29,459 nucleotides of DNA from a virus. The stretch is from positions 1 through 29,459 of IMG/VR virus record IMGVR_UViG_3300016476_000088; one strand, written 5' to 3'. The notes below the pieces were generated by a model. The model did no database searches and was not told the origin of the DNA. It saw only the letters and a list, made by a program, of their open reading frames with translations. This document shows positions 18,516 to 26,798 of this stretch, piece after piece; positions within the stretch are counted from its first letter, which is position 1, and each line of letters begins with the position of its first letter. The position numbers were made by a program, and so were the translations under genes.

Positions 18516-19887
18516 TTGGTATGTTTAAAGGTTGAAAATCATCTGGAGTCTGTAAGTTAGATGGGATGTATAGCTTTTCCATTTCTGCCTCATCAACGTA
18601 TGGAGGTATTTCTAATCCCATAATATCCATCTTTTGCTTAGGAGCAATCCACCACGCTTTATCTAACCAATCTACTTGCTCTGCTTTGTTAGCTTCTAAT
18701 TCTCCGTAAACAGTAGCATCGAAGTCCACATAAATATTTGTGCCTCTATAACCCCAATCAGAATGTAATTTTCTGTTTAGGTTATCTCTAATACCAGTAA
18801 GCAAAGGAATAGCACAACGTAAAGTCAATGCTTTTTCTCCTTCTCTTTGGTTATTATAAGTCTTGTTATCGCTATCGTTTAAAAGTTGAGCAGGTACTCC
18901 GTAAATGTTACAAAGCGCCTTCATATCCCACTTTTCACTTTCTATGATGTCTAATTCAACTGGACTTAATCCGATTTGCTTCCAATCTACCTTGTAACCA
19001 CTTACCGCAATAGAATTAAAATTAGCTGAACCACCTTTTTCACTTACCGCCTTTTTAAGCGCTTGTGCTTGTTGTGTACCGCTAATTGGATCAAAGCGTT
19101 CATCATTCATAAAAAGTACTCCAGCTGGACCACCATTCTGGAAGGAAGCAACTGCTGCAGTCTTCGCTTCGTTCGAACGAGTCAAGTTTTTCGCCGCAGC
19201 CATCAAAGGAGATTGACCATATAGTTGATTCCCAGTTGTATTCCATTGTGGGTTAAAGTATTTATCTTGAAGAATTTCTTGTTTAGTAAAGTTCCAAAGT
19301 GGACCATAGTTCAATTGGTAACCTGCAATTGTTGGAGGGAAGTTTTGTATGTCAGCTAATACGTACATATATTGAGAAGGCAATACATACATTTCGTAAG
19401 GTTTCCCAGTATTATTACCGCCTTCAATCATCTTTGCGTAAATGAAAGAATTACCAGTAATCAACTTAAACGCACACCACGCTTCCACGAAATCGCCAAA
19501 TGTATCTTCTCCGTTAGGATATTTCAATAACTCATTTAATCTTGCATCGCCAGTATATAATTCAAAAGCCTTTTTATGTAACTTTTCTATATCTTTCCAG
19601 TTTTCAATCTTATCTGGTTGGCTCATTAAAGCCTTGTATTTTTTAGCAGCTACTTCATCAACTACCTTGTAAACGTGGAATGGTGCAAGTTTTGCTTTAT
19701 CTGTAATTAACTTTACAATTGAGTAAACAATATCGTTTGCAGAATATCCATCACGAACAAAGCTAATGTTATCGCCTCCTTGCCAAGTTACAATCCCTTG
19801 CTGGATAGCTACTTGTCCATTGAAAGGTATTTGTGGTAAAACAGTAGATAGTTTTTGTCTTTTAGTAAAAAAGTCAAGTAATCCCAT
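18508..19887 (-). CDS. Portal protein
   Basis: 459 aa, located directly downstream of the large terminase and upstream of the MuF-like protein. Confidence 0.85.
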   Translation of the reverse strand: MGLLDFFTKRQKLSTVLPQIPFNGQVAIQQGIVTWQGGDNISFVRDGYSANDIVYSIVKLITDKAKLAPFHVYKVVDEVAAKKYKALMSQPDKIENWKDIEKLHKKAFELYTGDARLNELLKYPNGEDTFGDFVEAWCAFKLITGNSFIYAKMIEGGNNTGKPYEMYVLPSQYMYVLADIQNFPPTIAGYQLNYGPLWNFTKQEILQDKYFNPQWNTTGNQLYGQSPLMAAAKNLTRSNEAKTAAVASFQNGGPAGVLFMNDERFDPISGTQQAQALKKAVSEKGGSANFNSIAVSGYKVDWKQIGLSPVELDIIESEKWDMKALCNIYGVPAQLLNDSDNKTYNNQREGEKALTLRCAIPLLTGIRDNLNRKLHSDWGYRGTNIYVDFDATVYGELEANKAEQVDWLDKAWWIAPKQKMDIMGLEIPPYVDEAEMEKLYIPSNLQTPDDFQPLNIPNE

Positions 19888-21429: not shown

Positions 21430-21864
21430 TTACAAAGATACGCCACAATTAGGGCAAACTTTGCCTTTTTTAGTATTATCAATTGATTTTGGTTCTTCTA
21501 TCGTTGGTACAAGGAAATTTACATTCATCCCCCAATTACTCAAATCTTCTAACTCCCAATCTTCATTTGCTATAATATCCATATCCCAAGTTCCAAAATG
21601 TGTGTTATCAAGTACTAATATTTTTTTCTTTTGCTTCTCGGTTAAATCACGCATTACGATAACTGGCACATCTTGTATCCCTAACTCTAAACACACTCTA
21701 TAACGTTGATTCCCACCTAATATTACGTTATTCTCATCTAAAATTAACGGCTTAGCTTGTAATAGAGTTGGATCTTCGCTAATAGACTTTCTTAGTTTAG
21801 CAAACTCCTCTACATCAATCTTTCTTGGGTTCTTAGGATTTGGTTTGATTTCGTTGATGTTCAT
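21430..21864 (-). CDS. ParB-like nuclease domain protein
   Basis: I.PNPKNPRKI...LIL.ENNVILGGNQRY is the ParB N-terminal/sulfiredoxin-like motif. There is a single C-terminal CPNCG pair. Confidence 0.75.
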   Translation of the reverse strand: MNINEIKPNPKNPRKIDVEEFAKLRKSISEDPTLLQAKPLILDENNVILGGNQRYRVCLELGIQDVPVIVMRDLTEKQKKKILVLDNTHFGTWDMDIIANEDWELEDLSNWGMNVNFLVPTIEEPKSIDNTKKGKVCPNCGVSL

Positions 21865-22986: not shown

Positions 22987-23712
22987 TTATAATTGATTTT
23001 GTAAAAATAAGTATAAAACGTATCGCTTACACTCATTTTTTATAAATATTTCATTATTTAATTTATCTAAATCTCGTGGATGTTTAGCTATTGACTTATA
23101 ATGCGCTATAATCTTATTTTTTATTTGGTCAGCCTTCTCCTTGCTTAAATTTTCCTTATTTAACACCTTACGCTTCCATAATACATCAAAAGCCATCGTA
23201 TTTAGCAATTCCCAGCCTTTTTTAGCCGACTTCTCCCAGTTTTTATACAAAGCCTCAATAATCTCGTCATCTTCCAATTTTGGTACTTCTAATGGCGCAG
23301 GTTCAACATATGTCTTTTTTCGTACTTGTACCGCTATTGGTTTATAAGCTGCCATCACATCGCCAAAGAATTTAGGAGTAAATGTGATCGCCTTGTCCAC
23401 CGAAAGTTTACCCATTGCGTAAAGTTCAAAAGCTACTCCAAGTTCTTTTAGCTTAAACTGTCCGTAATTATTTATTACAAATTCACATAAAAACTGAAAT
23501 AACTCTATTGTAGGTACTTGACATCCGCTTAATGCTATGCAAGTCTTTAAATGCTCTTTAACCTCAATTGGAGAACAACGACTAATACCCATTGTTTCTA
23601 ATGCCGAAACGACTTTTAACTCATCTGGTTCGAGTTTATTATAAATCTCTAAGGGCATTGTATTGTTGCTCAGCGTAAGTTGGTTTGCGATTGTTGCTAA
23701 TTCCCGTTGCAT
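22987..23712 (-). CDS. Hypothetical replication-module protein, partner of the replisome organizer
   Basis: ORF-track protein. The annotated start overlaps the upstream gene by 74 nt. The alternative start MPLEIYNK at 23658 overlaps by only 20 nt. I recognised no motif. Confidence 0.5.
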   Translation of the reverse strand: MQRELATIANQLTLSNNTMPLEIYNKLEPDELKVVSALETMGISRCSPIEVKEHLKTCIALSGCQVPTIELFQFLCEFVINNYGQFKLKELGVAFELYAMGKLSVDKAITFTPKFFGDVMAAYKPIAVQVRKKTYVEPAPLEVPKLEDDEIIEALYKNWEKSAKKGWELLNTMAFDVLWKRKVLNKENLSKEKADQIKNKIIAHYKSIAKHPRDLDKLNNEIFIKNECKRYVLYLFLQNQL

Positions 23713-24364
23713 TCAATTCATTTTTAAGTGTGAAAAATCCTTTCCATCCTTTTGCCATTGATTGTTCTATTATTTTAATGGCAATTCCTTCTTCTCCATT
23801 TGATAAATTTACTAAGTCTTTTAAAGCAGCTTGTTCGCTTTGTGGAGTTGCGTATGTAAACTTAAATTGTTTTTTCTTATAATCCTTCCACATTGCCCAA
23901 TAATTTGAAAATTCTTCAGTTTCAAAAGGTAGCATTACCATTACCTTAACCTTATCCATTTCCTTATCCTTATCCATAACCATATCCTTGTCCCCTTGCA
24001 AGGGGCTTTCAAGGGGCTTAAAGTTCTCAATTTGATCTTTATACCTATCTAAATTTTTTATTATTGATGTGTGCGCTTTATTGTTTTCACTTAATCCACT
24101 TGGATATTGAAATTCAATAAAACTTGGTATAAACCATTTTGTCCCATTATCTAAAGGAATGATTTTATCTCCAAAAAATGATAAAGCCTTTTTTTCATCT
24201 AATTTTTCGCCAATCCTAATTTCAGCAACTTCTATGTCTACTTGCCAAATACCAGAATGATCGCAATCATCGCAAATGTATAACCAAAGTAGCTTGTAAG
24301 GGGCTTTCAAGGACCTTATAAATGGTTTTTTCCATTTTTCAGTATCTGTAAATCTCTTAGCCAT
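23639..24364 (-). CDS. Replisome-organizer-like replication initiation protein: two domains joined by a low-complexity KD/M linker
   Basis: The N-terminus FTDTEKWKKPFIRSLKAPYKLLWLYICDDCDHSGIW resembles the phage replisome organizer N-domain. The C-terminus is W..W..YKKKQFKF...II.QSMAKGWKGFF. The linker DNA carries the repeat cluster. Confidence 0.6.
   Translation of the reverse strand: MAKRFTDTEKWKKPFIRSLKAPYKLLWLYICDDCDHSGIWQVDIEVAEIRIGEKLDEKKALSFFGDKIIPLDNGTKWFIPSFIEFQYPSGLSENNKAHTSIIKNLDRYKDQIENFKPLESPLQGDKDMVMDKDKEMDKVKVMVMLPFETEEFSNYWAMWKDYKKKQFKFTYATPQSEQAALKDLVNLSNGEEGIAIKIIEQSMAKGWKGFFTLKNELNATGISNNRKPTYAEQQYNALRDL
23950..23978. repeat. Cluster of CCTTATCC / TTATCCAT repeats (DnaA-box-like) inside the organizer gene linker
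   Basis: CCTTATCC begins at 23950, 23962 and 23968. TTATCCATT is at 23952-23960, TTATCCTTA at 23964-23972 and TTATCCATA at 23970-23978. The last matches the TTATCCACA consensus at 8 of 9 positions. Confidence 0.6.
23992..24005. repeat. Perfect 14-bp palindrome CCCCTTGCAAGGGG
   Basis: Read directly from the sequence. It is a GC-rich island in AT-rich DNA, adjacent to the repeat cluster. Confidence 0.8.
24000..24019. repeat. Tandem AAGGGGCTT iterons spaced 11 bp apart (24000-24008 and 24011-24019). The first lies within the 15-mer AAGGGGCTTTCAAGG (24000-14).
   Basis: Read directly from the sequence. Confidence 0.75.
24298..24312. repeat. Distal copy of the 15-mer AAGGGGCTTTCAAGG. With flanks it is a 20-mer with one mismatch: 24293-24312 versus 23995-24014.
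   Basis: Read directly from the sequence. Both copies lie inside the organizer gene. Confidence 0.75.
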
Positions 24365-24370
24365 AAAAAT

Positions 24371-24425
24371 AAAAAAGCCCCATCAAATCCCTCCTATGTT
24401 GCAGATAGGAGTTCATCTCAAGGGC
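24371..24425 (-). terminator. Structured intergenic element (hairpin plus GGGGC-T6). It may be a terminator or a 5' leader.
   Basis: On the minus strand the stem is CTCCTAT/ATAGGAG (24391-24411) with loop CTGCAAC. A GCCC/GGGC closing pair follows, then TTTTTT. The geometry is not canonical. Confidence 0.3.
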
Positions 24426-24468
24426 AATAAGTTCTTAATAGGTCTGCAACACCTAATGCAAATATACA

Positions 24469-26360: not shown

Positions 26361-26798
26361 TTAAACTAAGACATTTAAGTTGAAAACATCCTTTTTTATT
26401 GAATCGTCAAATTTGTTGGTTAATTGACCTTGAATCTTTTGGATTGAGTGTAAAACAGTTGTGCGATCCCTATTGAAGATTTTACCTATTTCTTCCCCAT
26501 TTAACTCTGTTTTGTCTTTAGTTAAATACATCGCCATTTGTCTTGCCAATGCTACTTCATCGCCTCTGTATTTGCTCATTAATTGTCCATAACTGATTTG
26601 GTAGTATTCGCATACCTTTTCAGCGATTGTAATTGCGTACTCTTTTTGTTCTTGTTTGTCCATTCTGATAGTTTTTATGTTTAAATGTTTGTCTAATAAA
26701 TCCTTTAATTTTTCTATTTCTTTCTTTAGCGCTTTGTTCTTATCTCGCAAAACCTCTATTTCAAGTTCTGCCATATACGCTTTGTGTACTTCTTTCAT
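26361..26798 (-). CDS. Coiled-coil protein with a DnaA C-terminal (domain IV) DNA-binding domain
   Basis: EYYQISYGQLMSKYRGDEVALARQMAMYLTKDKTELNGEEIGKIFNRDRTTVLHSIQKI aligns by eye with E. coli DnaA [60 protein letters not shown]. There is no AAA+ domain. Confidence 0.8.
   Translation of the reverse strand: MKEVHKAYMAELEIEVLRDKNKALKKEIEKLKDLLDKHLNIKTIRMDKQEQKEYAITIAEKVCEYYQISYGQLMSKYRGDEVALARQMAMYLTKDKTELNGEEIGKIFNRDRTTVLHSIQKIQGQLTNKFDDSIKKDVFNLNVLV

Follow-up and report, generated by a model that had tools for sequence, protein, structure and literature searches.

Short phased repeats inside a replisome-organizer-like phage gene as a candidate iteron-type replication origin

The viral sequence analyzed here, IMG/VR record IMGVR_UViG_3300016476_000088, comprises 29,459 bp and is referred to in its full length as the window; all coordinates are those of its plus strand. 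On the minus strand, at 23639-24364, it carries a gene for a 241-residue protein that resembles phage replisome organizers, and inside this gene lie clustered copies of the 9-mer AAGGGGCTT in an 11-bp phase. From sequence comparison we consider it probable, at roughly 70%, that this is a phage replication origin of the iteron type, carried inside the gene that encodes its initiator. The features of the locus are as follows.

23639-24364, minus strand: initiator (replisome-organizer-like) gene, 241 aa; the protein has a winged-helix-like domain at the N-terminus and a helical one at the C-terminus, joined by a disordered repeat linker
24020-24364, minus strand: coding region of the N-terminal domain (residues 1-115), presumed to bind the iterons; topology from AlphaFold2 (AF2)
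23639-23929, minus strand: coding region of the helical C-terminal domain (residues 146-241), a presumed adaptor to host or phage replisome-loading factors; AF2 helices and a weak PHROG 678 match
23989-24019, no strand assigned: main iteron cluster, two exact AAGGGGCTT units (24011-24019 and 24000-24008) and an inverted degenerate unit (23989-23997) in 11-bp phase; includes CCCCTTGCAAGGGG
24287-24317, no strand assigned: auxiliary iteron cluster in 11-bp phase, AAGGACCTT (24309-24317), AAGGGGCTT (24298-24306) and AAGTAGCTT (24287-24295)
23936-23988, no strand assigned: hexamer tract (AWGGWW)x9, as read on the sense strand, which has no C here; encodes KDMVMDKDKEMDKVKVMV
24029-24068, no strand assigned: low-stability AT-rich patch, candidate unwinding region, in which both the 26-mer and the 40-mer of lowest stability within the gene lie
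22987-23712, minus strand: downstream partner gene, 241 aa, without a Pfam, PHROG or NCBIfam match; overlaps the 3' end of the initiator gene

The exact 9-mer occurs three times in the window, where 0.21 copies are expected, and none of 100 shuffles reached three. All copies fall within 307 bp inside the initiator gene, two of them 11 bp apart (24000-24008 and 24011-24019) and the third at 24298-24306. When one mismatch was allowed, the window-wide count was not significant (8 versus 6.2 expected). Therefore, the signal lies in the exact, clustered copies. Once the degenerate units at 23989-23997, 24309-24317 and 24287-24295 are counted in the 11-bp register, each cluster consists of three units. 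On the sense strand, codons 116-125 read AAGCCCCTT-ga-AAGCCCCTT-gc-AAGGGGACA, and the stretch near the gene start reads AAGGTCCTT-ga-AAGCCCCTT-ac-AAGCTACTT. The main cluster is located between the N-domain and the disordered linker; the auxiliary cluster lies within the N-domain coding region, 48-80 nt into the coding sequence and 287/298 bp from the main cluster.

The original prediction, a short note on this stretch that preceded our analysis, had listed these repeats, and every one of them was recovered, including the palindrome CCCCTTGCAAGGGG at 23992-24005 and the plus-strand CCTTATCC units at 23950-23957, 23962-23969 and 23968-23975. The reported recurrence of an iteron-bearing stretch about 298 bp away also held, as the 26 nt at 24293-24318 are 88% identical to 23995-24020. 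The linker tract (23938-23993) is the highest-scoring tandem repeat of the whole window, and no further iteron-like arrays were found elsewhere in it. Folded as single-stranded DNA, the iteron/linker region formed no structure beyond the small palindrome (z = -0.29), and scans for sigma-70 promoters and terminators remained at chance level. A long-range RNA stem joining the two clusters was rejected, since the upstream cluster is direct in the window and inverted in other relatives.

The evidence that carries the argument comes from relatives, namely 80 loci from an IMG/VR scan with 56-85% amino-acid identity to the window gene. In 79 related viral contigs we counted 174 exact copies of the 9-mer in the homologous gene (59 kb in total) and none in 401 kb of flanking sequence, and nearly all 79 have kept the main cluster. 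A codon alignment of 34 non-redundant sequences (<95% identical) revealed frozen iteron codons: K116 is AAG in 34/34, P117 CCC in 32/33, L118 CTT in 29/30, S120 AGC in 32/32 and P121 CCC in 33/33, compared with a gene-wide usage of 25% for CCC, 38% for AAG and 25% for AGC. Third-position identity reached 0.82 in codons 116-124 and 0.86 in codons 125-140, with a mean of 0.56 in the rest of the gene and at most 0.70 in its other 9-codon windows. The residue across the 2-nt spacer, which may be E, I, T, A, S, N, D or K, is the most variable of the region. Moreover, the three copies of the window gene are read in three frames, as AAG-CCC-CTT (KPL), nnA-AGC-CCC-TTg (xSPL) and aAA-GCC-CCT-Tac (KAPY). 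Distant relatives carry the upstream cluster at the same position and in the same register, but in inverted orientation (AAGGGGCTTacAAGGGGCTT in the sense strand), so that it reads AAGGGGCTT-ac-AAGGGGCTT and encodes IRGLQGAYK; one clade has lost it.

The original prediction had named synonymous-site conservation among relatives as a check, and the frozen codons and third-position identities answer it in a strongly positive way. Since frozen synonymous codons, a free spacer, the use of three frames and the inversion cannot be explained by a peptide repeat, the AAGGGGCTT repeats are, as judged from these alignments, a DNA-level element under strong selection. The comparison thus supports a cis-acting element that is conserved in the DNA and sits where the domains of a replication-initiator-like gene meet.

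The adjoining hexamer tract was found as a perfect run of 5-10 AWGGWW hexamers without C in all 34 non-redundant relatives. Its lysine codons are AAG in 145 of 145 cases versus 29% outside the tract, and its variation is limited to A/T at the W positions, leading to K/M and D/V swaps. Therefore, the DNA pattern of the tract is more constrained than the peptide. Every hexamer repeats the AAGG/ATGG start of the iteron, and the tract may provide low-affinity extension sites; its homogenization by slippage is conceivable as well. In low-GC proteobacterial relatives, whose sequences are not independent of each other, a (QE)n linker favors CAG (77% in the tract versus 29% outside), a preference that was not seen in the (QE)n linker at higher GC. 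Other branches of the superfamily use different linker hexamers, for example (CAGGAR)n or (GAAAAA)n.

Within this tract the original prediction had placed boxes for the host DnaA protein. The only match of at least 8/9 to TTATCCACA in the region is TTATCCATA at 23970-23978, and there is no 9/9 match. Besides, matches with up to one mismatch are not enriched in the window (6 versus 9.7 expected). Among the 34 relatives, 26 keep one 8/9 box and eight have none, which corresponds to 0.82 boxes per tract versus 0.45 expected from random AWGGWW arrays; none contains a 9/9 box. We therefore abandoned the assignment of host DnaA boxes, as such matches are an expected by-product of the hexamer tract and are absent from 8/34 relatives.

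The phage DnaA domain-IV protein, which had been named in the same context, is real. Its gene (26361-26798, minus strand) encodes 145 aa with a coiled-coil-like N-terminus followed by DnaA domain IV (Pfam Bac_DnaA_C, E = 8.5e-23) and without an AAA+ part. This gene is confined to the close clade; distant relatives with both iterons and hexamers lack it within 3 kb. The protein may be a competitor for DnaA boxes or a regulator rather than a part of the origin. A DnaA-dependent origin, in which the TTATCC-containing tract would be bound by host DnaA and/or the phage domain-IV protein, could draw on the presence of that protein, on the DNA-level constraint of the tract and on the retention of one 8/9 match in most relatives. 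We regard it as very improbable, because the conserved letters are the A..GG.. of the hexamer and not the ACA half of the box, no relative has a complete box, box-like matches fall below expectation window-wide, the domain-IV gene does not accompany the tract within 3 kb in distant relatives, and other branches carry (CAGGAR)n, (GAAAAA)n or similar linkers. An origin of the oriC type was rejected, as there is no conserved cluster of TTATCCACA matches and the domain-IV gene is not near the tracts of distant relatives.

The protein encoded around these repeats belongs to a family of 8085 clusters at 50% identity (E <= 1e-3), and many members match residues 1 to ~140 only, indicating that C-termini have been swapped. 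In the AF2 models the N-domain consists of helix 21-32, strand 39-41, helices 44-51 and 57-67, and strands 69-71 and 76-78 (confidence score pLDDT 73.8), the linker 118-140 is disordered, and the C-domain contains helices 150-167, 174-187 and 192-205. Scans of Pfam, NCBIfam and PHROG gave no direct match to the N-domain, the initiator had no Pfam match at E <= 1, to Phage_rep_O or to any other family, and neither Pfam nor NCBIfam detected a DnaB_2 or DnaD_dom C-terminal domain in the window protein. The C-terminal third matched PHROG 678 ('replication initiation O-like') weakly (E = 3e-4). A search of PDB sequences returned a LAGLIDADG match only (E = 0.017), which we rejected as spurious. The top of the Foldseek list for the N-domain, although not significant, contained mostly winged-helix DNA binders (CRP, MarR, ETS, plasmid Rep). 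When the N-domain family (172 sequences) was compared by hhalign with PHROG-labeled organizer N-domains (95 sequences; 'DnaD-like helicase loader' and 'replisome organizer DnaA-like', PHROG 1701 and 6251), the probability was 94.6% with E = 7.1e-8 over 109 colinear columns; shallower alignments gave probabilities of 0.3% and 16%. Accordingly, the label 'organizer-like' of the original prediction stands as remote homology seen in profile-profile comparison, and it has no direct family-model match behind it; the wording 'replisome-organizer-like' is justified in that sense only. A nucleotide search of GenBank phages retrieved Pseudanabaena phage Pan5 alone, matching the N-domain only, and the plasmid collection yielded a few prophage-like matches and no small plasmid with the initiator gene as its replicon.

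Some phage proteins share a different part of the query. Initiators of E. coli phages (records H24-H30, e.g. TRITO_36 of Escherichia phage Tritos) show ~83% amino-acid identity to it over ~29 residues that reach from the iteron/(QE)n linker to the first part of the C-domain; the N-domain does not take part in this similarity. In Tritos the shared stretch lies just past a different linker of its own, and the gene lacks the exact 9-mer. This stretch may mark a recombination junction for domain swapping.

The distribution of the 9-mer was followed beyond close relatives with the motif AGCCCCTTNNAAGCCCCTT, which had at least 120 matches in IMG/VR and at least 120 in GTDB, where each species was represented by one genome. 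Classified by gene context, 118 of 200 motif-pair loci among the matches listed had the motif in or beside a DnaD-like/organizer-type gene, 29 in or beside a window-type gene and 53 in neither. These 53 are a mixture of apparent chance matches in housekeeping genes, of short open reading frames (ORFs) and of intergenic arrays; by our own estimate, 596 Gb should contain ~70 random matches. We found 437 exact units in the 128 kb of 146 unique organizer ORFs versus 22 in 1,059 kb of flanks, an enrichment that is inflated because the loci were picked by one motif pair. The extra units and second clusters of this set were not part of the selection. Units are spaced by 11 bp within clusters in 180/193 cases. 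A second cluster is common; its distance is ~280-298 bp in genes of the window type, whereas in DnaD-like genes it is mostly 243, 255 or 267 bp. In detail, the distances in the DnaD-like organizer genes (L082-L326) fall mostly on a ladder of 233, 243/244, 255/256, 266/267 and 276/277 bp, with 287/298 bp in the window type. The ladder suggests a constraint on the spacing or helical phase between the clusters, and it may alternatively arise from subfamily structure together with the counting of degenerate units.

The same 146 ORFs fill all six frame-by-orientation classes, and the 9-mer is thereby translated into KPL, SPL, APS, KGL, RGF and GAS. Such unrelated peptides already contradict the notion that the pattern is low complexity at the protein level only, with a KPLxSPLQG motif and a flexible linker shaped by replication slippage and no function of the DNA. 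Peptides such as KPLTSPLQGAKDKDKD are indeed widespread in the family, and tract lengths from 5 to 10 hexamers are what slippage predicts. Nevertheless, we find this explanation hardly credible: synonymous codons are frozen beside a hypervariable spacer residue, intergenic arrays exist, and the K/M and D/V swaps of the tract are radical for a protein and conservative (A/T) for DNA.

Among the matches listed, the 9-mer was found in genomes assigned to ten or more phyla with 36-73% GC. Isolate hosts included Clostridium, Salinicoccus, Rhizobium, Acinetobacter, Citrobacter and Labilithrix, whereas metagenome-assembled genomes, in which the assignment of phage contigs is uncertain, added Bacteroidota, Planctomycetota, Nitrospirota, Acidobacteriota, Synergistota and others. 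In the named hosts the organizer domain was detected with E-values of 1e-14 to 1e-78, and arrays in organizer genes range from Bacillota to Myxococcota at the same domain boundary. The Firmicutes-type member L119 has a DnaD C-terminal domain. In Shigella phage 75/02 Stx, cII and a hypothetical gene are followed by the iteron gene at the position of lambda O and then by DnaC, and within 6.6 kb no units occur besides the four of this gene. The gene order recurs in a lambdoid element of Klebsiella, and the signature was also present in Shiga-toxin phages of E. coli and Shigella and in Acinetobacter and Klebsiella prophages.

The word is not universal in the superfamily, since the organizers of SPP1, TP901-1, Gamma, E2, phiCD505 and Tritos lack it and have other repeats. 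In the clade of the cyanophage Pan5 the units read ATCCCCCAT/ATGGGGCAT at the same boundary and in the same phase, a symmetric change of the flanks from AAG..CTT to ATG..CAT. Such co-variation of the site with the initiator clade (Pan5/L329) is expected of an initiator-iteron pair. Pan5 itself (L081) is a cultured phage of Pseudanabaena whose gene Pan5_50 is annotated as a hypothetical protein, and L329 belongs to the same variant clade. Pan5_50 shares the N-domain only, with 57% amino-acid and 71% nucleotide identity over 260 nt, and continues with a KD linker and an unrelated C-domain.

Taken further, AAGGGGCTT in 11-bp phase, usually in two clusters 240-300 bp apart, could be the origin determinant that a pan-bacterial superfamily of replisome-organizer genes, in phages and prophages, has in common. 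We advance this broader proposal tentatively and put it at somewhat less than even odds. The 9-mer may have been kept over at least ten phyla and from 36 to 73% GC while the initiators diverged to similarity at the profile-profile level, and may have been written into the initiator linker in whatever frame and orientation fits. No prior description of a shared iteron word was found in the literature searched by sequence, peptide and keyword, which omits most subscription journals.

A widely conserved host factor, rather than the phage initiator, might also read the array. Conservation across Bacillota, Proteobacteria and Bacteroidota would be explained in this way; the spread over phyla and base compositions, the occurrence of the 9-mer with two only remotely related N-domain families and the arrays outside organizer genes fit with it. 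We nevertheless judge a host factor improbable, as 147/200 of the motif-pair loci among the matches listed are in genes with an identifiable organizer N-domain and much of the rest fits chance, the iteron word changes with the N-domain clade in Pan5/L329, and many organizer genes use other repeats. Furthermore, we know of no universal bacterial DNA-binding protein with specificity for this 9-mer.

The stability of the gene is lowest next to the main cluster, 10 bp from the iterons: its weakest 26-mer starts at 24039 and its weakest 40-mer at 24029, and for instability they are in the top 0.2-0.6% window-wide. Throughout the superfamily, loci with >55% GC included, GC content dips by 0.06-0.13 at the corresponding position. 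The AT-rich stretch that the original prediction had seen at about 24045-24070 is thus real, but it is modest and slightly shifted (24029-24068). The least stable and most AT-rich DNA of the window lies at 27.5-29.2 kb.

This distant AT-rich DNA fits with an origin elsewhere and with repeats that serve as initiator or regulator sites in expression control, through autoregulation, a transcription roadblock or handcuffing. The auxiliary cluster is consistent with such a role, being optional, orientation-flexible and close to the start of the coding region, like the operator-type half-iterons of plasmids, and a conserved terminator-like element just upstream of the gene suggests tight control of its expression. 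Against it, the main cluster occupies the position of the experimentally defined origins of lambda, SPP1 and TP901-1, and other iteron-like arrays were not found in the window. Regulation and origin function are not exclusive either, since plasmid and lambda iterons serve both. We consider expression control as the sole function unlikely, if less so than a host factor.

The terminator-like element, on the minus strand at 24365-24455, is a structured region that separates the HTH_39 gene from the start of the initiator gene. It comprises two hairpins, TAGGT[GTTGCAG]ACCTA and CTCCTAT[CTGCAAC]ATAGGAG, the second of which is enclosed by an outer stem, GCCC...GGGGC, with a U-run after it. Complementarity between the two 7-nt loops is perfect; in relatives the loop pair co-varies through six variants, and both stems co-vary. 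Rfam gave no match to the element, which could act on initiator expression as an attenuator or terminator or could, next to the putative origin, be a signal for single-strand priming.

The initiator is surrounded by genes for RecT, the DnaA domain-IV protein, HTH_39 and NinG and by the overlapping gene without a family match; helicase, primase and polymerase are not encoded in the window. The downstream gene covers the last 74 nt of the initiator gene (23639-23712) in another frame and was found at the same offset (+647 to +662) in 57/80 related loci. The overlap seems to be constrained by the downstream gene, since the initiator tail (residues ~218-241) is the least conserved part of the protein, with an amino-acid identity of ~0.27. 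In proteobacterial relatives a DnaC-like ATPase takes the position of the downstream gene, and in Geobacillus virus E2 the gene next to the organizer is a DnaB-like helicase. Farther away, the second-best tandem repeat of the window, TATTACGTTGATTCCCACCTAA x2.2 at 21699-21746, lies in a gene with a ParB_N domain, and a related GTTGATTCCC repeat is located at 19223-19244 near the large-terminase gene; both may be packaging (pac-type) or ParB-related sites.

In the origin that we propose, the winged-helix-like N-terminal domain would occupy the 9-bp units next to one another, all from the same face of the helix. It may also extend along the neighboring AAGG/ATGG hexamer tract and reach the auxiliary cluster by looping, and the resulting nucleoprotein complex would destabilize nearby DNA of low stability, for which 24029-24068 is the best candidate. 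Recruitment of the host helicase and replisome would fall to the exchangeable C-domain together with the product of the downstream gene that overlaps the initiator. The disordered linker of the protein would essentially be a translation of origin DNA, by analogy with lambda O and SPP1 G38P. The original prediction had likewise suggested an origin inside the initiator gene; DNA-level conservation, architecture and remote homology speak for that part of it, and its DnaA-box component had to be given up.

Several observations weigh against an iteron-type origin in this gene. Full-length and N-domain models had no significant neighbor in Foldseek, and no helicase or helicase loader adjoining the initiator was identified with Pfam, PHROG or NCBIfam. 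The AT-rich patch is short, modest for a genome with 66% AT and without extra synonymous-site conservation. Cumulative GC and AT skew are monotonic along the window and uninformative on the origin; with all genes on one strand, skew cannot place it. The exact 9-mer is missing from the organizers of Gamma, Geobacillus E2, phiCD505 and Tritos, and some arrays lie outside organizer genes. Shewanella holmiensis (L256, 1679-1807) and S. marisflavi (L266, 2478-2585) have ~10-12 tandem 11-bp units of the AAAGGGGCTTC type. The 12-unit array of L256 is intergenic beside the type I restriction gene hsdR, with no organizer gene nearby; that of L266 is overlapped by no organizer-type ORF. In addition, one iteron word conserved across phyla is atypical for initiator-specific iterons and could instead point to a shared host factor.

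The origins of uncultured phages have almost never been mapped, and the sequence signature described here marks a likely one in a very large unannotated family that has no Pfam model. An origin at this site would explain the odd 'low-complexity' linkers of the initiators as translated origin DNA and would offer a way in which domains are shuffled at a junction conserved in the DNA. Iterons are normally replicon-specific, and one iteron word common to several phyla would be unexpected. If it is true, the code of initiator-DNA recognition would be unusually frozen, origin and N-domain would form a portable cassette onto which host-specific C-domains are swapped, and sequence alone could serve to predict thousands of phage origins. 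The idea is directly testable in E. coli with lambdoid replicons, and possible uses are origin prediction in metagenomic phages, replicons designed from phage sequences and decoy origins that confer resistance to phages.

Similar arrangements have been described for other phages. In lambda, iterons and an AT-rich tract lie in the central part of gene O, and among relatives of O the number of repeats varies and alters the length of the protein linker (PMC7466680). Like lambda, the window has direct repeats in mid-gene, between an N-terminal domain for which DNA binding is predicted and a presumed C-terminal recruitment domain, with a modest AT-rich patch next to the repeats. Shigella phage 75/02 Stx, with its proteobacterial homologue at the O position before DnaC, likewise parallels lambda and its Stx variants. 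However, the initiator has no Pfam Phage_rep_O match, and the window units measure 9 bp at an 11-bp period, whereas lambda iterons are longer, about 19 bp. Further differences are the second cluster ~290 bp upstream, the constrained hexamer tract, the location of the AT-rich patch on the N-domain side of the iterons and an iteron word common to many phyla.

In SPP1, oriL is located inside gene 38, where gp38 binds the repeats and the AT-rich part is the unwinding element (PMC6316719). Inspection of the gene 38 sequence showed the order found in the window, with an N-domain, direct repeats, an AT-rich low-complexity linker and a C-domain, and its PHROG-derived label is 'DnaD-like helicase loader'. 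In contrast to the window protein, the N-domain of G38P was not detected by our profile hidden Markov models, its repeats are GAAACGACAC-like and unrelated to the 9-mer, and SPP1 encodes its own loader and helicase next door. The replication protein of TP901-1 (rep, ORF13; annotated in its record as 'replication protein, experimental') also has direct repeats in mid-gene, visible at nt 300-340, with another N-domain, another repeat sequence and no AAGGGGCTT. Ostergaard et al. 2001 reportedly found these mid-gene repeats to be needed for replication.

Iteron plasmids (RepA, pi, TrfA) resemble the locus in their helically phased direct repeats, to which initiators of the winged-helix type bind there, and in inverted or auxiliary sites, which are used there for control, and a plasmid Rep-DUE complex (8ac8) was among the weak Foldseek fold matches. 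Plasmid iterons are 17-22 bp long, lie outside the rep gene and are highly replicon-specific, whereas the window units are 9 bp long, lie inside the gene and are common to very distant hosts. Compared with all these cases, the putative origin described here would stand out by its short 9-bp units in 11-bp phase, an orientation-flexible second cluster, a constrained hexamer tract and one word that appears to be reused across very distant hosts.

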